A stretch of 64,000 nt of DNA from Candidatus Peregrinibacteria bacterium (GCA_016928915.1 JAFGJT010000009.1:60347-124346), one strand, 5' to 3'. Shown: positions 2,715 to 34,685, counted from the first letter of the stretch. The notes: a model not told the origin generated them from the letters alone. Numbers and translations are program-made.

Positions 2715-2724
2715 TAATTTTTTT

Positions 2725-3444: not shown

Positions 3445-3462
3445 TTTTTTAACTTAACAAAC

Positions 3463-4023: not shown

Positions 4024-4041
4024 AAAATAACTTTTTTAAAT

Positions 4042-5679: not shown

Positions 5680-5919
5680 GATTTTTATAAAAATTTTATA
5701 AAAAGAGTTGCAAATATTTTTAAGATGATTTCTGGGATTATTGCGATAATTTTTGAATTATTTTTTAAGTTAAAGATACTATCTACATGTTGTGTGCCTT
5801 ATATACACACAACTGCTATATATAGGTTCAAAAAAATTGAACGAGAACAGCTTGATTAAGTAATAAATTAAATATTACTATAGGGACCCAACCTGTTGAA
5901 TTAAAGCCCCATATTTGCT
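5680..5919. other. Candidate oriC / dnaA upstream control region (weak)
   Basis: A 240-nt AT-rich non-coding gap immediately 5' of dnaA. It holds an inverted repeat TGTGTG-N9-CACACA at 5791-5811 and only degenerate DnaA-box-like 9-mers (CTATCTACA at 5779-5787, ATATACACA at 5801-5809). Confidence 0.3.
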
Positions 5920-7353: not shown

Positions 7354-7435
7354 TTAATTATATGAACAAAAAACTTTACTTTTTATGCCTTGATTTTTAT
7401 ACTAAGCCTGTCTTTTTTCTTAACATATAAAATAA

Positions 7436-8959
7436 ATGACTTTACATCGTTTGCCAAGAAAACGTCCCATTGATTACATACTTCCTTTTTTGATCATTAT
7501 ATGCACAGGCGTGATAGTTGTGCTTGGGTATCAGTTGTGGACTTCGCTGAACACCGATAACAACGAGAAAGATATATATATGTATGTTGCGCAGGGCAGC
7601 TCCAAAATTTTACCCTGGGGCGCCGGGGAATGGGAAAGGGGATATAACGGCACAAGGCTTTTACAGGGAGATTCTTTAAAAACCCAGAGCGGCGGCAGAA
7701 TAGTGATGGAGTTTTTTAATGATCATTATATAAGACTCGATGAAAGCACCGAACTTTCTTTGAATGAAATTAAAAAAAACGGTGAAGCTTATGAAATTAC
7801 GGTTATTTTATCGGAGGGGAAAATCTGGATCAACAATAATGAAAATTCACAGACACCGGTAAAATTTACGGTTCAGACAAATCATACGGTTGTTAAGACA
7901 GTCGGAACAATATACGAAATTGAACAAACGGCCGCATCCGAAGTTTTGCGTGTAATTAAAGGCGCTATTATGGCGGACATCTTTATTGATGATAACGGCA
8001 AAAAGAGCAAAGTCGAAACTCTTCAGATAGGAGTAGGGCAGGAGGCGATTTTAACCGATCAAGTTATTCAGCAGTATGTGCAGAGGCTTTCTCCGTCAGT
8101 TGTTAATGCGCTTTCAGATATATTTAAAGACAGCGGATTTTATAAATGGAACATGGCGGAAGACCAGAATCCGACCGATTTTACCAGTTCATCTTATGTT
8201 GCAACATTAAGCGATGAATTTGCGACTCCTGAAATTTCAACAGAGGAAACATCGGAAGCTGAGCTTGCGTCTCCTGTTATTACGGTTCCTTCATCGTTAA
8301 ATTTTTCAACACCCGAATCATCACTGACTATCAGGGGCACAACCGTTTCTGCAACAAAGAAGATGATGGTTGAAATTAAAGCGGGCAGCGCTACAAACAC
8401 TTATGAACTTAATTTATATATGCCGGGCAATACCGATTGGAGCTTTATAGTTTCACAGGATGCCGGCACCATGAAAACGGGATTAAACGAATATTATTTC
8501 TATGCTCTCGGTGACGAAGACGCAAAAAGCGCCAAAACAAAGCTCATTGTGGCTTATAATTCCGAAACATCAGAAGAAGAAGATGATGAACCGGCTGCAC
8601 AAGATCTTGGTCCGCTTACCGCTCCGGTAGTTGTTTCGTATAACGGCAGCCCTTCAAATACCGTGGAGCAGGAGCCTATAAGGGTATCGGGAACGGTTTC
8701 CGGCGCTGAAAAAGTGATTGTAAACGGTTATCAGCTTTCTGCTTTTAAATCCGGCGATACAACATGGATTTATAATGTAAAAGAATCATACGGCAATTTA
8801 AAACCCGGGGAAAACACTTACACTGTTGAAGCTGTAGGTAAGGACGGTTCAAAAAAATCCACGGAGTTTGTGATTATTTATAATAAACCGGCAGCAGAAG
8901 AAACAACACCCGAAGAAACAATAACCGAAGAAACGGCAACTCCCGAAGCAGAGACTTAA
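7436..8959 (+). CDS. Hypothetical membrane-anchored surface protein (FecR-like segment plus two Ig-like modules)
   Basis: N-terminal TM (ILPFLIIICTGVIVVLGY) and a beta-rich FecR-like region (GRIVMEFFNDHYIRLDESTELSL). Two roughly 100-aa beta modules are separated by acidic/Thr-rich linkers. The domain assignments are tentative. Confidence 0.55.
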   Translation: MTLHRLPRKRPIDYILPFLIIICTGVIVVLGYQLWTSLNTDNNEKDIYMYVAQGSSKILPWGAGEWERGYNGTRLLQGDSLKTQSGGRIVMEFFNDHYIRLDESTELSLNEIKKNGEAYEITVILSEGKIWINNNENSQTPVKFTVQTNHTVVKTVGTIYEIEQTAASEVLRVIKGAIMADIFIDDNGKKSKVETLQIGVGQEAILTDQVIQQYVQRLSPSVVNALSDIFKDSGFYKWNMAEDQNPTDFTSSSYVATLSDEFATPEISTEETSEAELASPVITVPSSLNFSTPESSLTIRGTTVSATKKMMVEIKAGSATNTYELNLYMPGNTDWSFIVSQDAGTMKTGLNEYYFYALGDEDAKSAKTKLIVAYNSETSEEEDDEPAAQDLGPLTAPVVVSYNGSPSNTVEQEPIRVSGTVSGAEKVIVNGYQLSAFKSGDTTWIYNVKESYGNLKPGENTYTVEAVGKDGSKKSTEFVIIYNKPAAEETTPEETITEETATPEAET

Positions 8960-8964
8960 TGTTA

Positions 8965-9996
8965 TTAAAGGTATCTGGCCTTATTAATATTGTGTTCTTC
9001 GTTTGTTTTAGCGTAAATTACTTCTCCTGTGTCAGCGGTCGTTAAATAATACCAGTAATCGCTTGTCTGCGGCTCAAAAGCGGCTTTAATATGTTCAATA
9101 TCGGGATTGCAGATTGGTCCGGGAGGCATTCCCACATATAAACGGGTATTATATGGAGAATCAATTGCAAGGTCTTCGGAATCTATTTTTTTCTTTTTTG
9201 TTGCATATAAAATGGTTGCGTCAGCCCCTATGTGCCAGTTGGATTCATAACGCTTCCATAAAATTCCCGAAACAAGGTTGTAGTCTTTGGCTGTTCTTAC
9301 CTCTCTTTGCAGAATTGAAGCCATAATGATCGTTTTATGAGGATCTATATTTTGCTGAATAAGAATCTGATCAAGAGTTTTGTATTTTTTTTCAAAATTA
9401 TTCAGCATTTTTGCTATTAAATCCCCGGAATTAAAATCAACCGGATCAATAAAATATGTGTCAGGATAAAGATATCCTTCAAGCGGAGCCTCCAGCCCTG
9501 ACATTTTTTCCCTGTTTAAAAACCAGTAAGACTCATAATCATTAAATTCTTTTACCGTTTTAATAAATTCGCCGGGGTTGATTAGTTCCATTTCAGCCAG
9601 TTTTACATCAATATCGTTGACAGTCAGCCCTTCCTGTACGGTTAGAACAAATTCCGATTCTGTTTTTGTCGTGATTGTATCCAGTATTTCAGGAACATTC
9701 ATTGATTTATTAAGAATGAACCGTCCGGCTATTATTTTTTTATCGCCGCCTGTAAACCTTGTATAAATATTAAAAGTCAGATTGCTTTTAATTAAGCCGT
9801 TTTTGGCAAGGGTCTCGGCTATATCACCGATTGAACTGCCTTTTTTTATAATTATTGAGATGTTTTCAGTGTTGTTGCTGTCAGCAGGTGAAAATATTGT
9901 GTAGTTAAAATAAAATCCGGCAAGAAAAATTAAAATAATCAGCCCCAATACCGCTTTACTTAAAAGTCTTTTCTTTTTCATACATTTTTCTGTCAA
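8965..9996 (-). CDS. mltG: Endolytic murein transglycosylase MltG (YceG family)
   Basis: N-terminal TM, followed by YceG signatures (ASILQREV, DSPYNTRLYVGMPPGPICNPD). The start could instead be the ATG at 9981 (MKKKRLL). Confidence 0.88.
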   Translation of the reverse strand: MTEKCMKKKRLLSKAVLGLIILIFLAGFYFNYTIFSPADSNNTENISIIIKKGSSIGDIAETLAKNGLIKSNLTFNIYTRFTGGDKKIIAGRFILNKSMNVPEILDTITTKTESEFVLTVQEGLTVNDIDVKLAEMELINPGEFIKTVKEFNDYESYWFLNREKMSGLEAPLEGYLYPDTYFIDPVDFNSGDLIAKMLNNFEKKYKTLDQILIQQNIDPHKTIIMASILQREVRTAKDYNLVSGILWKRYESNWHIGADATILYATKKKKIDSEDLAIDSPYNTRLYVGMPPGPICNPDIEHIKAAFEPQTSDYWYYLTTADTGEVIYAKTNEEHNINKARYL

Positions 9997-12536: not shown

Positions 12537-14618
12537 TTAACTCCAAATCACAACTCCTGCAATCAAAGGTGCGATAATTAATGAAATAGTGTTGATAACT
12601 TTTATCAACGCGTTTAGTGCCGGGCCTGCCGTGTCTTTATAAGGGTCGCCAACAGTATCGCCGACTATTGCCGCTTTATGCGCATCCGAGCCTTTTCCGC
12701 CGTATTTTCCGCTTTCAATATGCTTTTTTGCGTTATCCCAGGCTCCTCCTCCGGTACACATTGTAATTGCCTGAAGGAATCCAACAACTATTACGCCCGC
12801 CAGCACTCCGCCGAGGCTTAAAGGTCCCAAAAATACACCAACCAGAATAGGAGTGGCAATAGCAAGAATACCCGGGAATATCATTTCTTTAAGAGCGGCT
12901 TTTGTTACGATATCAACGCATTTGCCATATTCGGGCTGTGCTTTTCCGGTCATAATACCCTTTATTTCCCTAAATTGTCTTCTTACTTCAAGAACCACTT
13001 TATGGGCGGCTTTTCCAACTGATTCCATTAATGAAGAAGCGAATAAAAATGGGAGCAAGCCTCCAATAAACAGACCTATCATTACTCTGTAATCCGTAAT
13101 GCTAAAAACAAATTCATTGTTTGAAGCTTTTGCAAGTTCTTCGGTATATGCCTGAAACAGAACAAGAGCAGCCAGAGCCGCGGATCCGATTGCGTAGCCT
13201 TTTGTAACCGCTTTTGTTGTGTTGCCTACAGCATCAAGGGTATCGGTATTATGCCTTGCCGTCTCCGGAAGTTTTGCCATTTCCGCAATTCCGCCAGCGT
13301 TATCGGTAATAGGTCCGTAGGAGTCTGTGGCAATCACAATTCCCGTTGTTGAAAGCATAGCCACGGCAGCGATTGCTATACCGTATATGCCGTTTTGTGC
13401 TGATGACGCTTCTCCAAAGAAATATGCAATAATAATGGCGGTAACAATTAAAATTATCGGAAGGAATGTTGATTCCAAGCCAACCGCAAGACCCGCAATA
13501 ACATTTGTTCCCGCTCCTGTTTCTGAAGCTTTCGCTATTTTTTTAACGGGATTATATTTTGTGGACGTGTAGTATTCGGTAATAACATTAATAAACAGTG
13601 TAACAACCAAACCAACCAAAGCTGCGTAGAATATGTTCAGGTCCCCGATTAAATTTTGAGTGACAAAGTAGAATCCAACTGCCGAAAGCAGACCGGTAAC
13701 AATCATTCCTATATATAAAGCACCCATTATATTTTTACTTTTTTTGCCCAGCCTTACAAACCATGTGCCGATAATTGAAGCAATAACAGCTACAGCGCCG
13801 AGGGCCATCGGGAATTCTATTCCGGCTACACCCAATGTATCTGTTAATGTTGATGCCGCAAGAATCATTGCCGCGATCAGCGTAACAGCATAGGTTTCAA
13901 AAAGATCGGCTCCCATTCCTGCACAGTCTCCCACGTTGTCTCCAACATTATCAGCAATAACAGCGGGATTTCTTGGATCATCCTCCGGAATATTTTTTTC
14001 AATTTTTCCGACAAGATCGGCTCCAACATCGGCGGCTTTTGTATAAATTCCGCCGCCCACACGGGCAAATAATGAAATCAATGAAGCTCCGAAGCCGAAT
14101 CCTATAAGCAGGTTCGGTACGTTTCCCTCAGGAATATTTAATAATCTAGTAAAAACAAAATAAAAACCGGCAACTCCCAAAAGCGCAAGCCCCACAACGG
14201 CCAGACCAGTAACGGACCCTCCCTTAAAGGCAACGCTTAAGGCTCTATGCAAGGAGCTTTTTGCCGCTTCGGCGGTTCGCACGTTCGCTCTTACTGAAAC
14301 ACTCATACCTATATAACCGGCAAGCATAGAAAAAATTGCACCCACAAAAAATCCGACAGCAATTAAAATACCGTTATTGTAATCGCCATGAGGAATTGTA
14401 TAAGCAAGCACCAAAAAGACTAAAATCGTAAAAAACAGAACCGTTAAAGACTGCCTGTGCAGATATGCTGAGGCGCCTTCCTGAATTGATTTTGCAATTG
14501 CCTGCATTTTTTGCGTTCCAGCTTTATACATCAGAACATTAATAATAAGACCCGCTGCGTATAAAAGAGCGATTACGCTTACCGCAATTGAAATTACAGA
14601 GATGTCCATGAAATTCAT
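12537..14618 (-). CDS. hppA: K+-independent H+-translocating membrane pyrophosphatase
   Basis: 693 aa and polytopic, with [18 protein letters not shown] and [16 protein letters not shown] motifs. GNTTKA (Lys rather than Ala) marks the K+-insensitive class. Confidence 0.95.
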
Positions 14619-24002: not shown

Positions 24003-24175
24003 AATATGTGCGTTTTTAATGCGTTTTGTAACCGGAAGCTTATTATAATCAAACTTGAGGGTTTGTTCAATATTATAAAAGATATATGAAAAAGGAGAGG
24101 GTGGGATGTCGTAGATATCCGTTTGCATTGCGAGGATATCGAGACATTTCAGCCTCTCCTTTATTAGTTGATTTT

Positions 24176-27100
24176 TTACGAGAGCACAAACTCTGAAGAC
24201 GGCAGGATTTCTTGCAGCACTACAGATGGATTTAAGTATATTCTGCTGTCAAATCTGATAACAACAGCACCTTCTTCCTTTGCCGGGTCTCCGGCATAAG
24301 TTCGGTATTTTAGAAGATTATTTATGTCTCCGTATATGGAACCGTAATGAATATACTGTTCATCATTATATTGACCCTGATCTGCACATGTTTCCTGGCA
24401 GATCTGTCCGCTGTCCGCTCTTTCGCCTTCCTGCGCAAAGAATACTCCGGCGGTTTCATTTGTGTTTATAAGAATACTGCCGTTTATAACAATCAATGTC
24501 AGAGAGGCTATATTTCTTGTATCCAGTAGAGCGGAAGCATCATCTTCGTAAACAATTTTGCTGTTGATTTTTATATCACCGTTTTCAACAATGATTGTTT
24601 TTGCTCCTTTTGTGAATATTAGATCGGTTACACCATCGCCCAGAGTAAGGTCTCCGTCGTTTTTGTAATATACCCCGTTAATTGAAGCGGGAAGCTCATT
24701 TTCATTGTTAATCTGCGAATTGTTGTTAAGGTTTTGTTCGTACCTTGCCACTTTTTGTTTGTTTGCCTCAATATTAAGCACGATCGCTCTCTGCTGAAGC
24801 GCTTCTGAAGTTTTTAATTTAACTTCACAGATTAAACTTGAAATTCCGGCAATGTCTTCGTAACCTGTTTCACCCCCTTCTCCCGTTGAAGGCTGATTTT
24901 TACAGATAGCAGCGGTAAAGGTAGGTGAAATTACCGTGCCGGGACCGGTTGACGGTGTACCCGGCGTAGTGGGTTTATCGGGTGTAATAATCGGCACATC
25001 TACATTTGCTATATCGGCGCACGCAAGAGTGTCAACTCCGTAATCAAGCGGATTTTCAAGGAATACATCTCCTCCGGAACGTATAATAATATAAGGACAA
25101 GGGATCATGACTTCGGATGTGCTTGAGCCTGAAGTAAAATCATCTCTGAATCTTGAAACGTTATTATAAGTTTCACCGCATATGCCGGTTACATTAAACA
25201 TATGATCTTTGTCCGTGCAGTTATCAACATTTACTTCCGAATGAATATTTCCGCGGTATTGTATACGCACTTCCCGATTGTCGGGAGCATTATAAACCGT
25301 AACCCCCTGAGGTGTACCTATGTCACCCGTGTAACACAAGTCATTATCTGTTTCATTACATGGTGAAATTGTGCGGCCGCCAACCGTTACAACCATGGAT
25401 CCGCTTCTGTAATCAATATATCCGCCGCTTAGCTGATCTCCCACATAACCAAGAATTCTTCCTTCAACACCTATGGTGTCGGTAATTGTTACATCCTGTA
25501 CACCGTCATTATAATGAGTATATTTTATTTCATAATCAACATACTCGTCATTAAAATTTGCAACCGTTCTGTCGCTAAACGCGGCACCGGCTCTTGCCCT
25601 TCTAACATTTTTATCAAAATCGGGCGGTTCAATTTTATATATTAATCTGTCTTTACAAACATCTTCATAATCAGGCACCCATATGTCAATCCATGATGCG
25701 TCTTCAATAACTTCTCTTTCAAGAACAAAACAGTCGCCGTTAACTTCCAGAGTATCCCTTTTCCCATCGGATGTTTCGTATTCAAGTTCGGTTACCGGCC
25801 AGTCGGTATCAAAACAAACTTCCTGGTCGTCGCGAACAAATTCTTCCCGGTCCAGAACAAAATATTCACACTCTTTTTCTTCGCTCTGCAGCCTGTCTAC
25901 ACATTGATCATTCGGATCATATATATTGGTTGCTCTTGCAATCAAAACATCGCCCGGTCTAAAGTCATACGAATAATCATCAAGGTTAATTTCATTGCTG
26001 TCTGTGATTGTTCGCGGAAATGGAGATACAGTACTTCCGTTTCGTTCAACAGTCCATCTTATATTATAATCAAGATTTTCGGGATCGGTTTCAACCGTTG
26101 CCGAATATGTTGATCTGCTATCTGAAAAATTTGACTGGTTGATTGTAAGATTAACGCACTCTCCCTCTTCTTCGCCCTGATTGACATCAAACGTATCCCA
26201 GCAAACATTTTCAGCTCCCACAGTTCTAATTGTCATAGTGCCTGCTTCACCCGGCAACACTCTAATAACTGTTGCGGAACTTGCCAGAATACAATTACCC
26301 GAACCCTGAACATCAGGTACAAAATTACCATAATATGCAATATCGCCGTCATAACAATATTGTAATGTAGGAATATTTCCATTTTCATACAGATAATCAT
26401 TTCCTTCAGTATCAATCAGTCTTTCCACATCAATCGGAAAGGTTTCGCCGACTTCAAGTTCGGTCTGGTGGGTTCTGCCTGGATCCGTAACAAGTTCGGC
26501 GCAGTCTACTTCTTCCTCAGGCGTTTTTTCAGTCTTTATAAAATCAGAGCATCTGTAATCCGCACCAATTACTTGTATTGTAAGCATACCGGCTTTTGTA
26601 GCATTAAAACTTATTTGAACGTTGCTCGGCGCTTCGGCGCAACCATCGCCTGTTTCGTATTGGACAGGGGAGTAATCTATGTTTTCTTCCCAATTATAAC
26701 AATATCTTATTGTCGGATAGTCGCCGTTTTCTTCTCTGTACGGATCTCCGTTTGTATCAATTAAAGTATCAATTCTAATTGGGGTTAACACATTTAATTC
26801 AGCCACCGCCAGCCCCGCTGAACCCGGATCCGTTTTAAGATCGGCGCATTCTTTTGGAAGATCTTCTACCTGCGGCACCGCCTCAAATTCAAAATATACC
26901 TTAACGTAATGCACCTGTGAGGAATCAAATCTGCCAACCTGCCCCGAAGTAGAATATGATGGATTGCTGCTTATTGTAAAGCCGCTTGTTGTTACGTTTT
27001 GTATCTGCGCCGGTGTATTTAAAGGTATATATTCAACTTCATTTCTCCATAAATCTTTTTCACGCACAATGTAAAATTCTTTTGGAACAAGCGTGAACGG

Positions 27101-27721
27101 CTGGCTTCCGGTAACTGTTACATCGGCCCATACGCTTCTTGGTTTTGTATTTGAACTTGATATGTACATTCGGGGTTTAAACTGTGTTTGTGGAACAGGG
27201 TTGTTCCATGTGCCCCAGTCGTTGATTTTAATGGTGGTATCATAAGCGGGATATTTGTTTGCTTCGCCGTTGTTATGCATATATCCCCAAAAACCCACTC
27301 TTTTGGGCTCATCGTTTGTAAAATTTATATTTACGGAAGTTCCCTGGCTAAAATTATAGTTAGATGCGTTATCCCATGGTGAAGGATAAGGAATTGTTGC
27401 ATAAACCGATTCAGCCGTGGCCAGTGATTCTATATACAAAAACTGCCTTTCGTTAAAAGGCCGTCCGTCTTCTGTTGTCTGATCTTTATATCCGTTAAAG
27501 GACGCAAAAGGGAGCCCGTACCTGAAATGTGTATTCGGTGCACCCGTGCCTCCGCTATAACCGTTGTTATGAAATTTTGTACAGCTTGTGCCCTGATTGT
27601 AAAGATCCGGACAGTTGTTGGCGTCGCCCGAGGATCCCCAGTACGAAAACACCTGTGTTGCCGTAAATATAAAAATAAACAGCAGAAGAATTTTTGTTGA
27701 GATTGCAATTTTGTTTTTCAT
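24176..27721 (-). CDS. Orphan large secreted Cys-rich protein (1181 aa) with tandem ~108-aa repeats
   Basis: Signal-peptide-like N-terminus (MKNKIAISTKILLLFIFIFTATQVFSYWG) and many Cys. It has two clear tandem repeats (residues ~291-398 and ~406-513) and a C-terminal beta-helix-like segment. No family recognised. Confidence 0.85.
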   Translation of the reverse strand: MKNKIAISTKILLLFIFIFTATQVFSYWGSSGDANNCPDLYNQGTSCTKFHNNGYSGGTGAPNTHFRYGLPFASFNGYKDQTTEDGRPFNERQFLYIESLATAESVYATIPYPSPWDNASNYNFSQGTSVNINFTNDEPKRVGFWGYMHNNGEANKYPAYDTTIKINDWGTWNNPVPQTQFKPRMYISSSNTKPRSVWADVTVTGSQPFTLVPKEFYIVREKDLWRNEVEYIPLNTPAQIQNVTTSGFTISSNPSYSTSGQVGRFDSSQVHYVKVYFEFEAVPQVEDLPKECADLKTDPGSAGLAVAELNVLTPIRIDTLIDTNGDPYREENGDYPTIRYCYNWEENIDYSPVQYETGDGCAEAPSNVQISFNATKAGMLTIQVIGADYRCSDFIKTEKTPEEEVDCAELVTDPGRTHQTELEVGETFPIDVERLIDTEGNDYLYENGNIPTLQYCYDGDIAYYGNFVPDVQGSGNCILASSATVIRVLPGEAGTMTIRTVGAENVCWDTFDVNQGEEEGECVNLTINQSNFSDSRSTYSATVETDPENLDYNIRWTVERNGSTVSPFPRTITDSNEINLDDYSYDFRPGDVLIARATNIYDPNDQCVDRLQSEEKECEYFVLDREEFVRDDQEVCFDTDWPVTELEYETSDGKRDTLEVNGDCFVLEREVIEDASWIDIWVPDYEDVCKDRLIYKIEPPDFDKNVRRARAGAAFSDRTVANFNDEYVDYEIKYTHYNDGVQDVTITDTIGVEGRILGYVGDQLSGGYIDYRSGSMVVTVGGRTISPCNETDNDLCYTGDIGTPQGVTVYNAPDNREVRIQYRGNIHSEVNVDNCTDKDHMFNVTGICGETYNNVSRFRDDFTSGSSTSEVMIPCPYIIIRSGGDVFLENPLDYGVDTLACADIANVDVPIITPDKPTTPGTPSTGPGTVISPTFTAAICKNQPSTGEGGETGYEDIAGISSLICEVKLKTSEALQQRAIVLNIEANKQKVARYEQNLNNNSQINNENELPASINGVYYKNDGDLTLGDGVTDLIFTKGAKTIIVENGDIKINSKIVYEDDASALLDTRNIASLTLIVINGSILINTNETAGVFFAQEGERADSGQICQETCADQGQYNDEQYIHYGSIYGDINNLLKYRTYAGDPAKEEGAVVIRFDSRIYLNPSVVLQEILPSSEFVLS

Positions 27722-27753
27722 TTTAATTTATTTTAAATATTAATTAATGGTTT

Positions 27754-28290
27754 TTATACACCAAAAGGTGTTCCTGAATTTGATGCAGCTTGCTGAGGTT
27801 CGTCTGTTGAAACAAGCCCCACTTTTATTTCCGCATTTTTATAAAGACTTATATTCATTTTTCCGTTTTTTACGTTAATTTCAGTTTTTTCAACATTGAA
27901 TTTTAATTCATATTTTCCGCTTTCATTGTTTGTGAATTTTATTTGCGCTATTTCGGGTTTATAATCGGTAAAATATTCATTTGATAATGTAAAAATAATA
28001 TCGTTGTCAAGCTCCCTGTATGTTACTCCTTTTGCAGCCGTAATTTCTTTTACGGTTAATCTGGCATCGGATTTTGTTACAACTATTGAGCCATCCGCTC
28101 CATCTTTTTGATTAATCAAAGAAAGAGTTACAACCGGTTCATCCACCGGAAAGTATGCGGGTCTGTCAGCGGAAAGTTCAAGCGACGGCTTGATTGTTGA
28201 TAAAACATATACTACGGCCAAAACCGCAAGTACAAGCATTACCAGTAAAAGAACAATAATATTCTTTTTGTTTGATGATTTTGTTTTCAT
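27754..28290 (-). CDS. Orphan N-terminally membrane-anchored beta-rich protein (178 aa)
   Basis: A basic N-terminus and one TM (IIVLLLVMLVLAVLAVVYVL), followed by a beta-strand-patterned domain. It sits between the two large genes, with gaps of 39 and 32 nt. Confidence 0.7.
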   Translation of the reverse strand: MKTKSSNKKNIIVLLLVMLVLAVLAVVYVLSTIKPSLELSADRPAYFPVDEPVVTLSLINQKDGADGSIVVTKSDARLTVKEITAAKGVTYRELDNDIIFTLSNEYFTDYKPEIAQIKFTNNESGKYELKFNVEKTEINVKNGKMNISLYKNAEIKVGLVSTDEPQQAASNSGTPFGV

Positions 28291-28329
28291 TTTTATTTAA
28301 GTTATATTTTAATAAATTATTTAGATTGT

Positions 28330-31300
28330 TTAGACGCTGCTGTCTGTGGCCGTTGAAGATGATTTTCCTCCCGAAGGTGTGTCTTTTGGAGGAGGCTGAT
28401 CGGATGGCGTGGCTTCTTTTGTCGGAGGAGAAGGCGGCTGGTTTGGTTTTTGCACCCAAATGCCGAGCCCCACTGTAAGCCATGCGGCTTCTTTTCGCTG
28501 TACGCCTTTAACCAATACATTTCTTTTTGCGTATGCTCCGGTCCATGGAACCGCAAGTTTTTTGCTGGTTGTAATCGCAAATCTTTGCCGCGAAATGATT
28601 GTTCCGTTGGCGCATTTTAGGTACGGCCCCGCCATTACTTTTGTATCGTTCGTGATTGTAAACTCTTTATATTTATAAGTTTTTTCACCGTTTAACTGGG
28701 CGTTTCTTACACCGAGAACAAGTTTGTGGAATTCGTTAAAGGCCGCGGCGTTTTGGGGGTCAATTAATAGTTTATTAACATCTGCTATATTATGTTGTCG
28801 GGCATATTTATATATTGCGGTAAGTCTTACAAAATTATCTTTGCCGAGCACTTCTATCATCGGGTAAATGCCGGAATTTTTGTCGTAAAGCGATATCAAA
28901 GAAAGTGCAAGATCTGAATTTAAAAACTCCATTTTTTCCTGTGCGGTTGTCAGAGTTTCTTTCATATTAAGAGGGGAAAGCAGATTTAATACCATTTGTG
29001 CGGCTGCTTTTTGCCTTGCATCAAGCGCATTTAAATTTAAAGTGGTCGGACCGAAAACCTTGAAAAATCTATTCTGTATTTCATTTGTATTTGAAATTCC
29101 GTAGACAGAAGGCACGGCTTCTCCGCCTGTTTTTCGCGTAAATGACATGAATTTCATGTTTTCCGTAATCTGCTGCGGCTTTGTTAATTTGCTTCTCAAC
29201 TGTGTGTAATCCTGCGGCATACACTGGAACAGATAATTCGCAATAACTTCAGGTGTTGCTTCGGGGTAAGCTTTTTGAACCTCCTTCCAGGCCTGTGCGT
29301 TTTGAGTTCTCCACTCATTGATATAACGTATCATGTACTGCCTGAAAGCTGCGTTTCGTCTTTCAAGCGATTCATTTATTTGTCTTTCCGAAGCCTTGTT
29401 TCTTCCGGCTTCTTTTTCAATGGCGGTAAAACTCAAATCAATAAGAATTGAATATAAAATGTTCATTTCATAATCATTAAGCGGTTTTGCTCCTTCAAAC
29501 TTTCCTTTTGCATAATCCTTTTGCAGTTTTGTAAAAATGATTTTTCTGTTCGCAGCGGCATTAGCCATGGTTTCTCTTGTGATGAGCCTTGTAAAAAACT
29601 TTCTGTTTTTTGCAAACCAGCTGGCTCCAAAATTTGCAACATATTTCCCATTCTCCTGTGACATACTGAACTGCTCAGGACCTTTAACGCTTAGGGCCGT
29701 ATCCATTTTGCCGCTTAAATCCTGATATTCCTGCTTGCTGATTGCCCCAATGTTTTCAAATTTTTCAAATCTGGCCCCTTTTCTTTCTCTGTCTTTGTAT
29801 TCTTTCAGAGTCATCACATTCGCATCGGCTTTTGTAAAATCGCGTGTTGATTCGCCTTTAACAAGCTGATATCTTTGTCCGTCTCTCTTATATATATAAT
29901 AAGGAGATTGATTTCTTATTGTGCCGGTATCTCTTTCGGTGCTTGTTTTTAGTGTAATAATAGTTAAATTCATTCCTTTATGATGAGCGAACGGAAAAGC
30001 AATTTGTTTTCGGGCAATCATAAGAACATCAAGTGCGCTTGCTGCCAGCAAAATGCGCTGGGGGGTGCTGTCGTTGTCCAATACAAGTCCTTTGCTTTTT
30101 AAATCCGGATCAAGCTGGAATTCAACATTGCTTCCTTCAATTCTTAAAGGAATAAGCTCAACAAAATTGCCAACAAGCCTCACTTCAATGTCTATATCTT
30201 TGAAAACGCGTTTAATAAGTTCAAAACTTGAACTTGGATACGTTTTTGTTTCCGTGCTGTTCTTTACTTGACCTACTCTGGCAAGTCCCTTTCCGCCCAT
30301 GCGCGAATCAAAATACAATAATGCGTTTTCTCCTTTTAATTCAAAACCTTCAATAACATGAACCGGTTTTTTTAACTGTGCGCTTAAGTCTCTTTCAGCA
30401 TCCTTTTCCTGCTTGAACTGATTAAATCTTCCAACAACATGACGCACTGCAACTATTTCCTGAGTCCACGGCACCTGGAATGTTAAATAGAATCCTCCGC
30501 CACCACCCGGTATTCCATGTTTTGATACTCCTATCCCCGCCGCTAATCCGAATTCTTTAGCCCACGGAAGTTCCTGATTGCGGCCGCATGCATTGATTAT
30601 TTTATCTTTAGTTCTTTCCCAGCATGCATATAAAATTTTATCCGGGCATCCTCCGGCGTTTTTAAATGTATTGTCAAGATAAGTAACCAATCTTTGTACA
30701 TTTATATTGGGATGATTTCTGATTCTTCTGATTTTTTCCGGATTGAATCCTGAAATCGCTTCAATTTCTCTGAATTTATCCATTTCATATTTTATTTTGC
30801 CCTGCAGGTTTTTTTCCTGATCCCATTTCCAGTAAAGACCGACTGAAACGCCCACGCCTCCCGGAAGGCTCGCTCCCGCGCCGGCTATAACACCGATTGC
30901 ATTATCTTTGGCTTTACCCACATCAATTTCGGTTCCCGCATATGCCGCTCCTCCAAGAGCCCATCCTGAATCTTTTATCCATCCTGCTCCGGCGCCGGCT
31001 CCAATAAACACTTTCATTCGTCCTTTTTTGTAGGCGTATTGAATCGCGCTTCCTATTCCGACACCCTGCTGAAGACCCGCTATCGCTATACTTGCATGCA
31101 CTTCATGACCATTAGGATTTTTGTATTTTAAAGTCACTCCAACGCCTCCTCCCACGCCGACTTTTTTATCACTGTTTACCAGCGCTCCGAGAGCCGCCTT
31201 AAAATCAACCTCAACTTTTGGCATTTGATTTAAAGCCATGCCCTGTTTAACAAGCGCTTCCTGGGCTTTTCGTATATTGGGGTCGTTTGAGAAATACTGG

Positions 31301-33915
31301 TCTTGAACATCAACATTTTGGATTGTTTCAATATATCGCGCTTCAAGAAAACCGAGTCTTATAAATTTAATAACACTGGGAGATAAAGAAGAATCCAGCG
31401 ATTTTATTCTTATTTTGTTTATAAGGTTTGCAACATTTTCCTGAAGGATTTTTTCATTTTCCGCTTTGTTTGCTCCAAATGGTTTAAACCCGCTGTATAC
31501 GCCGAATTCTTTTTTAAGCTTTTCCATAATTTCGTTTGCCTTTGCTGTGTCTCCGGCATTTACAATTGATATTCTTATGCCGTGTTCAAGGTACTGGTTA
31601 GCCAGATTAACTGCGGCATTTTTATCTTCAATTCTGTACATTCCGGTTTCTCCTGTTCTTTTGGCAAGTTTTTCCATCATGTCCATAAAACCTCTTTTTT
31701 CAACAGCTTCAAGTTCAAAATCATTGCGTCCATATGTCTTTTTATTCAATTTGCTCATATCAACATATTTTGTTTTTGCCCATTCCCAGTGCCAAAAACG
31801 CGACCAATTGCTTCTTAAATTGTTTTGAACGCTTGTTCTGTCACTATCAAATATTTTTTTAATAAAACTTACTGATTTTGTATGATTTGACTTATCCAGC
31901 TCACCTCTTATTATTTCCCAGGAATGTGAATTCATGGGATGAAGTCCTTTTTCTTTTAGAATTTGCAGCGAAGTTGAGAGCCAGCTTGAGTTTTTGGGCG
32001 CTTTAGTCAAAATATATCTGTTTTCATCAACCTTTTTTATGAATCCCATTTTAACCATGTTTTCAAAACCATAAGCCCAGAACATAAATTTAACCGGATC
32101 AAGGCCGATCGCCCCTATGTCGGAGCTTCTTACTCTGTCCGGCGGCAGGTCTTTGCCTTCTTTATATTGCGACATAACCTGTGCTTTGATATTTGCCGGA
32201 ACAATCATTTTAATATCCGCGGCCTGTCTTTCCTGACCGAATTGCAATTCATAAAGTGGATATGTGTCATATCCGCCTTTTTTTTGTTCGTAAGCTTTGT
32301 TAATTTGATCTTTTTCATCTGCACTGGCTTCCGGAATATTTAAAAATACTGTCCTTGAAAGCTCTTCTCTTGGGCTTTCCTGCCTCGCGTTTAAGGGCTC
32401 CATTGTTTTAAGAGCTTCATACACACGCGCAATCGCAACCCCTATATTAAAGATTGTAGTTAACTGTTTGTTTTGTTCGGGTGTTAATTGTCCTTTTTCT
32501 TTTAACGCATAAAGGCGTTTATAGTCCTTAATATATTGTTTATATCCGCCTTTATAAAGCTCAATTCCTTCATTAAAAAAGTCTTTGCCTTGTATTTCGG
32601 ACGACCATACAGAGCCTATTACACGACGCATATATGTTTTTTGGTCCGTGGGGCTCATTAAATTATACGGCGGTTCGGATAAAATTCTTGATATAACCTG
32701 GCTTCTGTCAAACCATTTTTCAAAATCTTTTGTGGATTGCAGATATTTATGACCTCTGAAATGGTCGGATTTCATAATATAATCATAGTACTCGCTAAAG
32801 AGCCTGTTTTTGCGTCCGCTCATTTGCGCTTCGCGTGCTTCACGGGCCTTTTCGGTTTCTTTTCTCTCCTTAACTTGTGTTGTTAATGCTTCAGCAGGTT
32901 TTACAGCAGGCGCACGCGCGGATTCATACCGGACCAAAGATACCGTCGTTCCGTCAAAGATTTTTGCGCGGTTTATATTGCCTTTTTTATCATAAATCAC
33001 ATTTCCGTTAACATCGCATTTATAAAATGAATTTTGATAATAAGTTGCATAGTAAGGTTTTCCTTTTGTGTCTTGAACCTGAATAATTATTCTTACATTT
33101 CCGGATTCAAGGTCTCTTAAATTAAAAACATCATGAATTCTTGTGGTTTTCTGAAGGTTATAGTCAAGCCTTCCTTTAGAATTTTTAAAATTAATTTTAT
33201 ATACGCCCAATTGGCCTTCAATCGGCATAATCGTACGGTTTGCCTGAGCGCTGTTTAAAAGTTTATTTAGAGTAACATGGGCGTTAACATTCTTTTTTGC
33301 ATCAGACAGCCTTTTTTCAATTCCGGCGATTATTCTTTGTTTGGCTGCCTCATGTCTTTCAAGCACTTTAAAATGTTCGGAATGCTGTTTTAAATCTATT
33401 GAAATTAGCGTTGCTTCATTGTTCGTTTTTGTGGATATTAAATTAACTTTCCCGTTTACTAAAACAAGTTTTAACGAATCGGCAGTATTAATTTTTGGCA
33501 GAATTTCTTTCTCAAATTTGTCGCGGTTTTTATTTGCAAAGCCTATTATTCCCTTTTTCAGACTTGCTGCCATTAATTTTTTGAATTCATTAGAAACGTT
33601 TAAACCCTTTATTAATTCACATCCTTCATTATAGATAAAAGGTAAACGCCCCTTTGTATTAAGATATTTTTTATTCAGTGCCTTTTCTCCGCGGCTGTTT
33701 TCTACTACTGTCTTAAACTTCAACGCCTTTTTCATATGCTGTTGTCCTTTTTCTTTTTCAAGTTTTATAAAAGCCTTTTGTTCTTCTCTTGTAGCGCCCT
33801 GCTTTTCGGGTGCATTTCTAGACGTTTGTGCTTTTGTATGCCAAACGGGTCTTTGTTCTTTGCTTAAAGAAAACTTGTTAAGTCTTGAAAGAATTATATT
33901 TTTCAGAAGTTTCAT
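28330..33915 (-). CDS. Orphan giant protein (1861 aa): no signal peptide, central glycine-zipper region, C-terminal hydrophobic segment plus Pro/Ser/Thr tail
   Basis: An uninterrupted 5.6-kb ORF. I see no P-loop, HExxH or other catalytic motif. The Gly-rich core reads VGVGGGVGV...GAGAGAGW...GVIAGAGASLPGGVGVSVG...GIPGGGGGF, and the C-terminus reads AAWLTVGLGIWVQKPNQPPSPP.... Confidence 0.88.
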   Translation of the reverse strand: MKLLKNIILSRLNKFSLSKEQRPVWHTKAQTSRNAPEKQGATREEQKAFIKLEKEKGQQHMKKALKFKTVVENSRGEKALNKKYLNTKGRLPFIYNEGCELIKGLNVSNEFKKLMAASLKKGIIGFANKNRDKFEKEILPKINTADSLKLVLVNGKVNLISTKTNNEATLISIDLKQHSEHFKVLERHEAAKQRIIAGIEKRLSDAKKNVNAHVTLNKLLNSAQANRTIMPIEGQLGVYKINFKNSKGRLDYNLQKTTRIHDVFNLRDLESGNVRIIIQVQDTKGKPYYATYYQNSFYKCDVNGNVIYDKKGNINRAKIFDGTTVSLVRYESARAPAVKPAEALTTQVKERKETEKAREAREAQMSGRKNRLFSEYYDYIMKSDHFRGHKYLQSTKDFEKWFDRSQVISRILSEPPYNLMSPTDQKTYMRRVIGSVWSSEIQGKDFFNEGIELYKGGYKQYIKDYKRLYALKEKGQLTPEQNKQLTTIFNIGVAIARVYEALKTMEPLNARQESPREELSRTVFLNIPEASADEKDQINKAYEQKKGGYDTYPLYELQFGQERQAADIKMIVPANIKAQVMSQYKEGKDLPPDRVRSSDIGAIGLDPVKFMFWAYGFENMVKMGFIKKVDENRYILTKAPKNSSWLSTSLQILKEKGLHPMNSHSWEIIRGELDKSNHTKSVSFIKKIFDSDRTSVQNNLRSNWSRFWHWEWAKTKYVDMSKLNKKTYGRNDFELEAVEKRGFMDMMEKLAKRTGETGMYRIEDKNAAVNLANQYLEHGIRISIVNAGDTAKANEIMEKLKKEFGVYSGFKPFGANKAENEKILQENVANLINKIRIKSLDSSLSPSVIKFIRLGFLEARYIETIQNVDVQDQYFSNDPNIRKAQEALVKQGMALNQMPKVEVDFKAALGALVNSDKKVGVGGGVGVTLKYKNPNGHEVHASIAIAGLQQGVGIGSAIQYAYKKGRMKVFIGAGAGAGWIKDSGWALGGAAYAGTEIDVGKAKDNAIGVIAGAGASLPGGVGVSVGLYWKWDQEKNLQGKIKYEMDKFREIEAISGFNPEKIRRIRNHPNINVQRLVTYLDNTFKNAGGCPDKILYACWERTKDKIINACGRNQELPWAKEFGLAAGIGVSKHGIPGGGGGFYLTFQVPWTQEIVAVRHVVGRFNQFKQEKDAERDLSAQLKKPVHVIEGFELKGENALLYFDSRMGGKGLARVGQVKNSTETKTYPSSSFELIKRVFKDIDIEVRLVGNFVELIPLRIEGSNVEFQLDPDLKSKGLVLDNDSTPQRILLAASALDVLMIARKQIAFPFAHHKGMNLTIITLKTSTERDTGTIRNQSPYYIYKRDGQRYQLVKGESTRDFTKADANVMTLKEYKDRERKGARFEKFENIGAISKQEYQDLSGKMDTALSVKGPEQFSMSQENGKYVANFGASWFAKNRKFFTRLITRETMANAAANRKIIFTKLQKDYAKGKFEGAKPLNDYEMNILYSILIDLSFTAIEKEAGRNKASERQINESLERRNAAFRQYMIRYINEWRTQNAQAWKEVQKAYPEATPEVIANYLFQCMPQDYTQLRSKLTKPQQITENMKFMSFTRKTGGEAVPSVYGISNTNEIQNRFFKVFGPTTLNLNALDARQKAAAQMVLNLLSPLNMKETLTTAQEKMEFLNSDLALSLISLYDKNSGIYPMIEVLGKDNFVRLTAIYKYARQHNIADVNKLLIDPQNAAAFNEFHKLVLGVRNAQLNGEKTYKYKEFTITNDTKVMAGPYLKCANGTIISRQRFAITTSKKLAVPWTGAYAKRNVLVKGVQRKEAAWLTVGLGIWVQKPNQPPSPPTKEATPSDQPPPKDTPSGGKSSSTATDSSV

Positions 33916-33951
33916 GTTTTTAGTTTTTAAGTTTTATTTTTATATCATATT

Positions 33952-33980
33952 AGTATACCAAAAATTCAACTTTGGGTCAA
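33952..33980 (-). promoter_or_regulatory. Sigma-70-type promoter of the giant-protein operon
   Basis: On the minus strand: -35 TTGACC (33980-33975), a 17-nt spacer, and a TGg-extended -10 TATACT (33957-33952). It lies about 36 nt upstream of the ATG at 33915. Confidence 0.6.
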
Positions 33981-34019
33981 TTAAAACCTGTGGTACATTG
34001 TTTGTGTATTTTAACTGTT

Positions 34020-34685
34020 ATGATAATGAAACCGCCCGTTATTTTTATTAATTTTAAGGCTTATAAATCCGCAACCGGTGAAAATGCCTTAAAAATGGCG
34101 AGAAAATTTGAAAAAATCGCCCGAAAATTCAGAATTTCAGTTGTTTTATGCGTGCAGAATGTTGATTTGTATCGCGTTTCGCAGGCTGTGGCAATTCCGG
34201 TTTTTGCCCAGCATGCAGACAACATTGAATATGGTGCACATACCGGATATGTACTGCCCGAAGCTTTAAAACAAAACGGCGCTTACGGAACGCTTTTAAA
34301 TCATGCCGAGCACCAAATTTCGGATGAATCACTTAAAAGTTCTATAGAAAGAGCAAAACAGGCCGGACTTTTTACGCTTGTATGTGCAAACACTCCTGGA
34401 AAAGCAGGTAAAATTTTAAAATATAACCCGGATTTTGTTGCTGTTGAGCCTCCCGAGCTGATCGGGGGGGATATCTCGGTTTCAAAGGCAAAACCCGAGG
34501 TTATTAAAAAAGCGGTAAAAATTGCTGGTCAAAAGAAATTAATAGTTGGAGCCGGTATAAAAACAGGGGAGGATGTTAAAATCGCCGTAAAATTTGGAGC
34601 GGCGGGAGTTCTTGTGGCTTCCGGCGTTGTACAAGCCCAAAATCCTCAAAAAGCCTTAATAGATCTTGCAAAGGGACTTTTATAA
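34020..34685 (+). CDS. tpiA: Triosephosphate isomerase, archaeal-type (short form)
   Basis: M(IM)KPPVIFINFKAY..., VFAQHAD, GTLLNHAEH, AVEPPELIGGDISVSKAKPEVI, GAGIKTGEDV. It aligns by eye with archaeal TIMs and lacks the bacterial GNWKMN and AYEPVWAIGTG motifs. The start is 34020 or 34026. Confidence 0.88.
   Translation: MIMKPPVIFINFKAYKSATGENALKMARKFEKIARKFRISVVLCVQNVDLYRVSQAVAIPVFAQHADNIEYGAHTGYVLPEALKQNGAYGTLLNHAEHQISDESLKSSIERAKQAGLFTLVCANTPGKAGKILKYNPDFVAVEPPELIGGDISVSKAKPEVIKKAVKIAGQKKLIVGAGIKTGEDVKIAVKFGAAGVLVASGVVQAQNPQKALIDLAKGLL

Follow-up and report, generated by a model that had tools for sequence, protein, structure and literature searches.

The three-gene locus described here has the look of a cell-surface machine shared by the whole lineage; it is neither an orphan nor an assembly artefact, and its conserved unit is the pair formed by genes 1 and 3, which is kept at one fixed locus across a phylum-level group and which no database names. 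The locus lies in a 64,000-nt stretch of a Candidatus Peregrinibacteria bacterium contig (GCA_016928915.1, JAFGJT010000009.1:60347-124346), hereafter the window. CPR/Patescibacteria account for a large share of bacterial diversity, and how they build their envelopes and contact other cells is largely unknown. Tentatively, and at somewhat less than even confidence, the locus may be a cell-envelope module, inherited vertically and specific to the Peregrinibacteria lineage (Peribacteria-related CPR bacteria), with a membrane-inserted base, the gene 1 product G1, and an exported fibre, the gene 3 product G3; within this reading we infer the membrane insertion of G1, an interaction between G1 and G3, and a role in surface attachment or transport. 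Read conservatively, the locus is a defined candidate for the main surface structure of Peregrinibacteria.

In the ORF listing, the locus comprises three minus-strand open reading frames of 1861, 178, and 1181 aa, separated by AT-rich spacers of 39 and 32 nt in which no hairpin was found, and it is bounded by a promoter and a terminator-like element:

33952..33980, minus strand: promoter, sigma-70-like TTGACC-17-TATACT whose -10 is extended by TG, 37 nt 5' of the start codon (ATG) of gene 1
28330..33915, minus strand: gene 1 (G1), 1861 aa, pI 9.65, without signal peptide, from an unnamed family of giant Peregrinibacteria proteins
27754..28290, minus strand: gene 2 (G2), 178 aa, Lys-rich at the N-terminus, with a single transmembrane segment and a beta-rich ectodomain of ~130 aa
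24176..27721, minus strand: gene 3 (G3), 1181 aa, pI 4.28, 26 Cys, with a signal-like N-terminus, modelled as a chain of beta-sandwich domains
24078..24162, minus strand: intrinsic-terminator-like element, a long hairpin (24162..24091) and then UUUUUCAUAUAUCUUU, directly 3' of the gene 3 stop codon

A first-pass annotation of this DNA had proposed three co-directional minus-strand genes with these gaps, behind a near-consensus, TG-extended promoter. ORFs and translations confirm the former, and the promoter is the top-ranked sigma-70-like site and the sole 10/12 match with a TG extension in a scan of 23.9-34.2 kb. The hairpin with its U-run 3' of gene 3, at 24162..24086 on the minus strand (dG -30.6 kcal/mol, z -6.8, 0/200 shuffles as stable), closes the three-gene unit ahead of holA, and a hairpin and U-run of unrelated sequence also stand 3' of the G3-like stop codon at four other loci (L006, L008, L001, and L010). 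The sequence evidence supports one promoter-to-terminator transcription unit, and to that extent the proposed three-gene unit stands; as a conserved unit it is reduced to G1 and G3, with G2 missing from distant loci. The gene pair and its operon occupy ~9.7 kb, and a related complete chromosome is roughly 1.4 Mb. The flanks are core genes, as had been reported, including holA, gatA, tpiA, hpf, and genes for a Wzy_C protein, riboflavin kinase, and a Mur ligase; the window ORFs that were scanned included no mobility genes, and no secretion system is encoded beside the locus.

The term "orphan" that had been applied to the operon is wrong. An exhaustive HMMER search returned 87 representative clusters related to G1 at E<=1e-3 (32 at E<=1e-30), nearly all with giant members of 1300-3229 aa, and 13 homologues of G3 were found, though both families are unannotated. 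The accompanying statement that none of the products was recognised as a described family holds: Pfam, NCBIfam, PHROGs, PADLOC, and PDB sequence searches name none of G1, G2, and G3, Pfam gave no named domain in 28 G1 homologues, and the PHROGs and PADLOC searches gave no match to phage or anti-phage defence proteins.

Co-occurrence in relatives was checked at 13 complete-enough loci (the window, L001, L002, L004, L005, L007-L014 less the cut end of L012, and the JGI contig of P0055). A G1 homologue adjoins tpiA in 13/13 of these, and a G3-like secreted protein follows it in 12/13, with holA coming next where the contig allows; homology of this large, signal-peptide-bearing partner to G3 was established in the loci tested. 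The exception is L014, where an opposite-strand HNH-like gene, not G3, follows the G1 homologue. Across the loci with a G1 homologue, rpoD identity ranges between 93% and 62%. MAGs, a single-cell genome (L004), and a 1.37-Mb chromosome record (L005) all carry full-length homologous ORFs in this order, and identities of 25-63% extend over the entire length of the proteins. An assembly chimera is excluded by these independent assemblies, which share the gene order, and the chance that the long ORFs are assembly or annotation artefacts is vanishingly small.

Because the entire neighbourhood from rpoD to holA is syntenic in these genomes, the fact that G1 and G3 are neighbours is by itself weak evidence that their functions are coupled. 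This bears on an improbable reading in which G3 is an S-layer or coat protein and G1 a functionally unrelated giant, the two sharing a transcript only through inherited gene order. Such non-specific adjacency, the L014 locus, where G1 is not followed by G3, and the strong promoter would all fit it, but the G1-G3 pair is retained over deep divergence, whereas the presence of G2 and of the flanking hpf varies, and the two genes lie in one putative promoter-to-terminator unit with tiny spacers and a conserved terminator position. All three operon genes diverge faster than their neighbours, with identities between the window and L001 of 41% for G1, 27% for G2, and 39% for G3, compared with 61% for holA and 75% for the Mur ligase. 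Fast divergence is typical of surface-exposed or interaction proteins.

G1 is basic along its entire length, and its ORF is not extendable upstream, because the ORF listing begins at the first start codon after a stop. Neither a hydrophobic N-terminus nor a transmembrane-grade segment was found in it (KD19 maximum 1.55, within the Gly-rich zone), and a hydrophobic N-terminus is also missing from the N-termini of about 60 family members. These N-termini share the motif [FKS]-E-[KN]-R-[LFM]-[VI]-F, after which comes an E/K/P stretch of low complexity, and a second family-wide motif, G-x-Y-x-K-C-x-N-G-T, lies within residues 1746-1821, the third strand block described below, its C and N nearly invariant. 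The first-pass description of G1 as a protein with no signal peptide, a Gly-rich core (21 Gly in residues 901-1000), and a C-terminal hydrophobic stretch, AAWLTVGLGIWV, followed by a Pro/Ser/Thr tail proved accurate, but its glycine "zipper" did not, as the Gly-rich block is predicted to form beta-strands, not helices. An AlphaFold model covering the C-terminal 1177 residues (pLDDT 78.7, pTM 0.64) predicts ~16 long amphipathic strands in three blocks, with helical and beta domains inserted between them (insertions of 87 aa and 585 aa), behind an N-terminal extension of ~920 aa:

33841..33864, minus strand: G1 residues 18-25 (SKEQRPVW), window version of the family N-terminal motif, from a comparison of the N-termini of about 60 members
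30823..31146, minus strand: G1 residues 924-1031, strand block 1, Gly-rich, with 7 predicted amphipathic beta-strands (DSSP on the model; pLDDT only 30-66)
30436..30561, minus strand: G1 residues 1119-1160, strand block 2 of the model, 3 strands, after the 87-aa helical insertion
29809..30360, minus strand: G1 residues 1186-1369, predicted compact beta-rich domain between strand blocks 2 and 3 (pLDDT mostly >90)
28693..29736, minus strand: G1 residues 1394-1741, predicted helical domain between strand blocks 2 and 3 (pLDDT about 80-95)
28453..28680, minus strand: G1 residues 1746-1821, strand block 3, predicted long C-terminal beta-hairpins with the end WLTVGLGIWV (pLDDT 87-93)
28333..28452, minus strand: G1 residues 1822-1861, disordered Pro/Ser/Thr-rich tail, such a tail occurring across the family (pLDDT <40)

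The strands follow an alternating pattern with one hydrophobic face and one small or polar face, the latter unusually Gly/Ala-rich, and with aromatic residues and Lys at the strand ends; the alternation is conserved across 36 homologues. Foldseek matches of the model in the PDB are weak (E 0.02-0.6, nothing at E<=1e-3), and most are outer-membrane beta-barrels. Those of moderate rmsd (about 5-12 A) with a probability near or above 0.5 are all membrane beta-barrels, with BamA, TamA, Occ porins, KdgM, NanC, OmpT, FapF, and autotransporters among the barrels matched (probability up to 1.0 over 250-290 columns); the poorly superposing matches, at rmsd 19-31 A, comprise the FimD usher and a nanobody/apolipoprotein B-100 entry. 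OMP-like barrels are also among the weak matches in the viral fold library BFVD, where nothing reached E<=1e-3. The model suggests that the amphipathic, Gly-rich beta core resembles porin/Omp85-type barrels, its closure into a barrel being putative, and the earlier idea of a membrane-inserting or pore-forming giant is kept alive by this core. The low pLDDT of block 1, the largest of the strand blocks, counts against a barrel. Alternatively, the modelled sheet, with its one Gly/Ala face, could pack against another domain in a soluble protein.

The predicted likeness of G1 to Omp85/BamA-TamA, porins, and type V barrels lies in nearly all of its fold matches and in its long, apparently antiparallel strands with alternating hydrophobicity and aromatic ends, and a predicted barrel protein encoded beside a large exported Ig-like or fibre protein recalls, by analogy, two-partner or inverse-autotransporter logic. 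G1 differs from these proteins in having no sequence similarity to them and no signal peptide, in strands split into three blocks by long insertions, in its N-terminal extension and Gly/Ala-rich second face, in the weakness of the Foldseek E values, and in a host lineage thought to lack an outer membrane. The Bac_surface_Ag/ShlB barrel and POTRA domains of Omp85/TpsB proteins (BamA, TamA, and FhaC) were not found by Pfam or NCBIfam in G1, 28 homologues, or the isolated strand blocks, and Pfam gave no match of G1 to Autotransporter, the 12-strand C-terminal barrel that in type V proteins follows a passenger with a signal peptide. OMP barrels have a Sec signal peptide and an outer membrane, whereas G1 and its homologues have no hydrophobic N-terminus, and for CPR bacteria as a group the outer membrane is regarded as lost (PMC10160955). 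For a basic protein without a signal peptide in such a cell, there is therefore no known route or destination for an OMP-type barrel.

These same properties fit a fairly unlikely reading in which G1 is a cytoplasmic scaffold or cytoskeleton-like giant that organises or anchors the exported G3 adhesin from inside, with no membrane barrel. In the attachment organelle of Mycoplasma, the giants HMW1 and HMW2 occur with the P1 adhesin, and HMW proteins there are scaffold- or cytoskeleton-like. By analogy, G1 is a signal-peptide-less giant with a Pro-rich region, encoded with a large surface adhesin in a reduced genome, and its conserved N-terminal motif and Pro-rich tail resemble docking elements; the lack of a signal peptide or transmembrane segment, the basic character throughout, the large helical domains of the model, and the weak barrel evidence point the same way. 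No homology to these proteins was detected in any search, however, and G1 is predicted to be beta-strand-rich and globular, not a long coiled coil, with no coiled-coil or known cytoskeletal family detected. The conserved hydrophobic face of its strands, their aromatic or Lys caps, and the restriction of its moderate-rmsd, higher-probability matches to membrane beta-barrels argue further against a purely cytoplasmic role.

G3 had been described as a protein with a Sec-type signal peptide, many Cys, tandem repeats, and a beta-helix-like C-terminus. A signal-like N-terminus, the Cys, and a tandem module were recovered from the sequence. Its Cys content is 2.2%, and AlphaFold predicts a string of beta-sandwich domains (pLDDT 62) with short stacked strands at residues 1017-1097 (pLDDT >80). 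The N-terminal part is variable in the family and the C-terminal ~450 residues are conserved:

26159..26851, minus strand: G3 residues 291-521, tandem pair of beta-sandwich modules, each of ~115 aa and with Cys, from repeat alignment and model
24179..25534, minus strand: G3 residues 730-1181, family-conserved part (aligned by hhalign to the distant partner in L013 with probability 100 and E 3e-43)

The two modules (291-406 and 407-521) share 36% identity (E 3e-19), and the conserved part includes a TITDTIG beta-sandwich and the segment IPCPYIIIRSGGDVFLENPLDYGVDTLAC as well as a disordered linker, in which an x-x-T-G is conserved, and the stacked-strand C-terminal domain. An LPXTG sortase signal was not found in G3: the x-x-T-G is internal, about 255 residues from the end, its P is not conserved, and the C-terminus is a folded domain without a hydrophobic tail. 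Foldseek matches are generic Ig-like or MG-domain chains, the GhpA grappling hook, and the Sap S-layer protein, and the model supports an exported protein of several beta-sandwiches, akin to adhesins or surface-layer proteins. The likeness to Gram-positive beta-sandwich S-layer proteins such as Bacillus anthracis Sap, which would favour G3 as a coat protein unrelated in function to G1, lies in a large, acidic protein with several beta-sandwich domains and a weak match at rank 44; TM-scores are <=0.2, and Pfam and NCBIfam found no known anchoring domain (SLH, CWB2, etc.) in G3 or G1. Confident matches to RHS/Tc toxins and to known adhesin or S-layer families, any of which would have overturned the first-pass proposal, were sought without success; no RHS/YD repeats or TcA/TcB domains appeared in Pfam or NCBIfam, and neither these nor a cocoon fold appeared among the Foldseek matches of G1 and G3.

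Peribacteria genomes are known to invest in large exported Cys-rich proteins proposed for attachment (PMC4736985), and in the related Vampirococcus giant surface proteins have been implicated in contact with the host (PMC8080830). G3 fits this group of large, signal-peptide-bearing, Cys-containing proteins from the same phylum-level lineage, which are described at genome level only; the searched passages of these papers mention neither this locus nor the G1 family nor its fixed place beside tpiA/holA. G3 differs in its Cys content, which compares with an average of about 7% in the 14-gene cluster highlighted in that literature.

In the favoured reading of an envelope module, the genes would be expressed as one transcript from the strong promoter, ending at its own terminator. 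G3 would be exported by Sec and stabilised by disulfides, forming an acidic extracellular fibre or coat of Ig-like beta-sandwich domains. G1 would be the cell-side partner, its ~16 amphipathic, Gly-rich strands forming a porin/Omp85-like beta-sheet or barrel in a membrane, with the inserted helical and beta-rich domains and the ~920-residue N-terminal region on one side and the Pro/Ser/Thr tail reaching the other. More speculatively, and rather improbably, G1 might represent a new class of giant, signal-peptide-less beta-barrel membrane protein in a phylum thought to have no outer membrane, serving either as a previously unrecognised envelope conduit built on a barrel, whose external fibre would be G3, or as a barrel delivered into a host membrane as a feeding or attachment pore, with the N-terminal E-[KN]-R-L-V-F motif acting as a new kind of targeting signal. 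If G1 truly carries a porin-like barrel, this would bear on whether "monoderm" lineages retain or reinvent beta-barrel membrane proteins and on how epibionts open a path to a partner cell.

The last possibility corresponds to an unlikely reading in which G1 is released or exported unconventionally and its barrel inserts into the membrane of another cell, e.g., the outer membrane of a Gram-negative host, with G3 as the attachment fibre of a contact-dependent pore or feeding device. An OMP-like predicted barrel with no Sec signal, from bacteria regarded as having no outer membrane, a family-wide N-terminal motif that could be a non-Sec targeting signal, the fast divergence of the genes, the adhesin-like fold of G3, and the Vampirococcus giants mentioned above would suit it, but there is no secretion system beside the locus and no known host, and the barrel is itself a prediction. 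We know of no translocated porin that is, like G1, a monomer of 210 kDa with some 1500 residues beyond its barrel. The analysis found no link of the locus to a host, to effector delivery, or to an episymbiotic lifestyle, all of which the first-pass annotation had proposed and which stay conjecture.

G2 is confined to the subclade of the window and absent from the more distant loci L009-L013. In the envelope module favoured here, it would act in that subclade as a single-pass anchored, Ig/cohesin-like adaptor at the membrane surface. The combination of a large predicted barrel protein with a small protein of Ig-like type and an Ig-like fibre resembles chaperone-usher pili in layout, and the top two Foldseek matches of G1 are to FimD; these superpositions, however, have an rmsd of about 30 A and are not meaningful, Pfam found no usher or PapD-like chaperone domains in G1 or G2, and G2 is predicted to be membrane-anchored, not periplasmic, and is absent from most of the family. 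Among eight G2 homologues compared with Pfam, one matched Cohesin (PF00963, E 0.0018) and two matched Ig_TgrO1 (E 0.006), all below threshold. The sole hydrophobic stretch of G2, residues 5-41 behind the Lys-rich N-terminus, and its beta-rich ectodomain bear out the earlier view of a small, N-terminally anchored beta-rich protein, and the sequence supports a single-pass topology.

The three minus-strand open reading frames (ORFs) reported in the first-pass annotation, here G1, G2 and G3, were reproduced with the same coordinates and lengths, separated by gaps of 39 and 32 nt, and the near-consensus promoter claimed for them also held up, TTGACC-17-TATACT being the top sigma-70-like match within 23.9-34.2 kb. 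An addition to that description is a hairpin 3′ of the G3 stop codon, which none of 200 shuffles equaled in stability and which a simple terminator scan overlooked because the hairpin interior is long. In transcriptional order, the elements are:

33980..33952, minus strand: sigma-70-like promoter TTGACC-17-TATACT with a TG upstream, 37 nt 5′ of the G1 start codon
28330..33915, minus strand: G1, 1861 aa (ORF call and translation)
27754..28290, minus strand: G2, 178 aa (ORF call and translation)
24176..27721, minus strand: G3, 1181 aa (ORF call and translation)
24162..24091, minus strand: terminator-like hairpin, dG -30.6 kcal/mol, z-score -6.8, with a U-run 3′ of the hairpin (element spans 24078-24162)

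Because a promoter stands 5′ of G1 and a hairpin with U-run stands 3′ of G3, the genes form a discrete promoter-to-terminator unit and, judging from these signals, are transcribed as one. Both internal spacers are AT-rich, and inspection revealed neither a hairpin nor a Shine-Dalgarno sequence in them. Across the leaders at 27722-27753, 28291-28329, and 33916-33951 (minus strand), a Shine-Dalgarno sequence was recognizable at none of the three genes, whose start codons are all preceded by A/T-only leaders (…AAATAAAAATG, …AAATTAAAATG, …CTAAAAACATG). The sequence AGGAGAGG, 3′ of the G3 stop codon, resembles a ribosome-binding site, with an ATG opening a 24-codon ORF standing 3′ of it; this role was rejected, as AGGAGAGG is the 5′ arm of the terminator hairpin.

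The genes had been described as orphans, a claim that did not survive deeper searches. When 1.84 billion representative proteins were searched exhaustively by HMMER with a profile built on G1 residues 685-1861, 87 relatives passed E ≤ 1e-3, of which 65 passed 1e-10 and 32 passed 1e-30; a G3 profile found 13 proteins. A word-indexed protein search returned two G1 relatives, and no more with an 8-sequence profile, reflecting a limit of that method. Nearly all full-length G1 matches are giants of 1300-3229 aa, with most of the profile covered. The source name of every G1 or G3 relative is ‘hypothetical protein’, and source labels, where given, are ‘Candidatus Peribacteria’, ‘Candidatus Peregrinibacteria’, ‘Patescibacteria group’, and, once, ‘Candidatus Gracilibacteria’; Peribacteria are a class within Candidatus Peregrinibacteriota.

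Comparison of 13 loci from independent assemblies, L004 being a single-cell genome and L005 a 1.37-Mb chromosome record, revealed the same gene order, which excludes an assembly artefact, and the genes were found to co-occur, two points on which the first-pass annotation had allowed that its proposal might fail. The G1 homologue is divergent from tpiA in all 13 loci and is followed 3′ by a large, G3-like signal-peptide protein in 12 of them, with holA next where the contig continues; conservation extends to the upstream block rpoD-dnaG-(MraY-like)-truB-Mur ligase-riboflavin kinase-Wzy_C-tpiA. At the remaining locus, L014, the G3 position is occupied by an opposite-strand HNH-like gene (12548-13756, minus strand; 402 aa, with a Cys/His-rich C-terminal region), possibly the insertion of a mobile element, and the contig stops shortly beyond it. 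A hairpin and U-run also lie 3′ of the G3-like stop codon in four further loci examined, where the sequences are unrelated, so the transcript boundary is conserved as well as the gene order. In the window, the housekeeping character claimed for the flanks was borne out, with gatA, holA, tpiA, hpf, a Wzy_C protein, riboflavin kinase, Mur ligase, FtsX, and RecO adjoining the operon and CTP synthase, TrpRS/TyrRS, PriA, SecDF, and others located farther away.

All three genes evolve much faster than their neighbors: identity to the related locus L001 is 41% for G1, 27% for G2, and 39% for G3, versus 61% for holA, 58% for tpiA, 75% for the Mur ligase, and 93% for rpoD. Lengths within the G1 and G3 families vary up to 1.7-fold, chiefly in the N-terminal parts. 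G1 and G3 are a phylum-wide, vertically inherited, fast-evolving, and unannotated pair, and G2 is a subclade-specific addition, confined to the window's own subclade (loci L001, L002, and L004-L008) and absent from distant loci. Fusion of G2 with G3 in distant loci was considered and rejected, as G2 has no similarity to the N-terminus of the G3 partner at L009. Two individual loci merit mention. The NCBI assembly GCA_040960375.1 has the entire locus twice, in different versions on separate contigs (L009 and L010, whose G1 homologues measure 2637 and 2454 aa), so it represents either two related populations mixed or a duplication of the locus with its neighborhood. At L007, a 2446-aa G1 homologue (1725-9435, plus strand) has an overlapping 129-aa ORF ahead of it, and G3 is 1775 aa.

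Searches of G1, G2, and G3 against Pfam and NCBIfam yielded sub-threshold noise only, PHROGs and PADLOC yielded nothing, and PDB sequence searches with single sequences and 3- to 37-sequence profiles were likewise empty. One G3 homologue (P0008) had two sub-threshold PHROG matches (E 0.0096 and 0.045). Pfam searches of 28 further G1 homologues, meant to reveal extra domains in the longer proteins, gave no consistent match, and those of the isolated G1 strand blocks found nothing at E up to 10. Among eight G2 homologues, one matched Cohesin (E 0.0018) and two matched Ig_TgrO1 (E 0.006), all below threshold. RHS/Tc toxins and known adhesin families, named beforehand as identities that would undo the proposal, gave no match to the three proteins. 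No known family was matched by any test used here, and literature searches found no prior description of this locus, of the G1 family, or of beta-barrels in CPR giants.

G3 is acidic (pI 4.28), with a signal-like N-terminus, 26 Cys residues, and two tandem ∼115-residue modules whose 36% identity (E 3e-19) emerged in direct pairwise comparison but not in BLAST self-comparison. An AlphaFold model built from a 13-sequence alignment (mean pLDDT 62, pTM 0.31) has the following parts:

N-terminus: helix (signal peptide)
residues ∼130 to 875: series of beta-sandwich domains
residues 876-983: disordered linker
C-terminus: domain of short stacked strands, pLDDT above 80

By hhalign, the G3 partners at distant loci are homologous to G3 with probabilities of 99.9 (L009) and 100 (L013; E 3e-43, last ∼450 residues), identifying the C-terminal module as the conserved core; the N-terminal beta-sandwich region is of variable length. 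The most conserved stretch, IPCP[YF]IIIR[SA]GGDVFLENPFDYGVDTLxC (residues ∼868-925, within 24950-25120 of the window), opens the region modeled as disordered (pLDDT below 30) and, with a conserved x-x-T-G after it, may serve for processing or binding. A sortase site was rejected, as the x-x-T-G is internal rather than C-terminal and is no conserved or canonical LPXTG. Foldseek comparison of the model with the PDB returned only generic multi-domain Ig-like chains, with TM-scores of at most 0.2, among them alpha-2-macroglobulins, contactins, the GhpA grappling hook, and the Sap S-layer protein. G3 is thus modeled as an exported protein of beta-sandwich domains, and these matches support an extracellular fibre or coat as its fold class, implying no family membership. 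It is improbable that G3 is an S-layer or coat protein and G1 an unrelated co-transcribed giant: S-layer family membership was tested for and not found, and the two genes travel together across the phylum.

G1 is basic (pI 9.65), and the earlier statement that it has no signal peptide stands, as its N-terminus is not hydrophobic; hydropathy analysis detected no stretch hydrophobic enough for a transmembrane helix. There are 21 glycines among residues 901-1000, and at the C-terminus a Pro/Ser/Thr tail comes after a hydrophobic strand, AAWLTVGLGIWV. Most of the G1 family shares a motif, [FKS]-E-[KN]-R-[LFM]-[VI]-F, located 15-35 residues from the N-terminus (for example, KENRLVF, AEKRLVF, and KEKFFVF; in the window at 33841-33864, minus strand, G1 residues 18-25) and always followed on the C-terminal side by a low-complexity E/K/P stretch. 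This motif, possibly a signal for targeting or docking, is absent from a subfamily of ∼1600-1750 aa with a different start (homologues P0048, P0051, P0056, P0057, P0064, and others). Such a sequence would suit a cytoplasmic scaffold for the adhesin, an unlikely role beside the barrel-like strands predicted in the same protein.

An AlphaFold model of G1 residues 685-1861, from a 37-sequence alignment, was better than that of G3 (mean pLDDT 78.7, pTM 0.64) and comprises:

N-terminal to residue 924: helical region
residues 924-1031: strand block 1, seven Gly-rich strands, low pLDDT (30-66)
between 1031 and 1119: helical insertion of 87 residues
residues 1119-1160: strand block 2, three strands
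residues 1186-1369: beta-rich domain, predicted confidently
residues 1394-1741: helical domain, predicted confidently
residues 1746-1821: strand block 3, five or six long strands, pLDDT 87-93
C-terminal to residue 1821: disordered tail

In the predicted strands, a V/I/L/F/W face alternates with a G/A/S/polar face, an alternation conserved across 36 homologues, and many strands end in aromatic-plus-lysine motifs (LKYK, YAYKK, LYWKW, VPWTG). G1 is accordingly modeled as a giant with ∼16 conserved amphipathic, Gly-rich strands and no signal peptide. Foldseek against the PDB gave no match at E ≤ 1e-3. Outer-membrane beta-barrels, including BamA, TamA, OccAB3/OccK, KdgM, NanC, OmpT, FapF, and EspP/Hbp, account for nearly all of the matches that were ranked (E of 0.02-0.6, probabilities reaching 1.0, 250-290 columns aligned at an rmsd of 7-9 Å); FimD ranked top, in a poor superposition. 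A viral structure library gave nothing significant, its weak matches including OMP-like barrels. The predicted fold-level likeness of G1, through these weak matches, is almost entirely to membrane beta-barrels.

These results confirm and extend the original observation of the operon and partly support its interpretation as an envelope apparatus: the unnamed families, the exported beta-sandwich G3, and the barrel-like strands of the G1 model agree with it, and the orphan status does not. Tentatively, and quite possibly, G1 would sit in a membrane as the base or conduit of a G3 fibre, with G2, whose Lys-rich N-terminus and single hydrophobic stretch mark it as a signal-anchor protein, as the adaptor. 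This reading is held at that level because the structural evidence is weak, G1 has no export route, and the outer membrane is considered lost in CPR bacteria (PMC10160955). It is rather unlikely that G1 is a beta-barrel membrane protein without a signal peptide in an outer-membrane-less lineage, possibly directed at a host, and delivery of the G1 barrel into the membrane of another cell is similarly doubtful. In the literature, large exported Cys-rich proteins with a possible attachment role are described as abundant in Peribacteria (PMC4736985), and giant surface proteins are described in Vampirococcus, a relative (PMC8080830).

The mechanical ORF starts of both flanking genes, tpiA (TTG at 33972, plus strand; region 33972-34030) and holA (ATG at 24128, minus strand; region 24042-24128), are probably too far upstream. 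Homologues of tpiA are ∼219 aa and the Pfam match of the window copy begins at residue 22, which an ATG near 34024 fits; homologues of holA are 325-362 aa. A promoter-like TTGAAC-17-TATAAT at 24070..24042 (minus strand), apparently belonging to holA itself, lies inside the nominal holA ORF. Elsewhere in the window, a 1061-aa SecD/SecF fusion (54858-58043, minus strand) includes a PPIC-type peptidyl-prolyl isomerase (rotamase) domain at residues ∼243-358, an unusual joining of a foldase to a translocon accessory protein.
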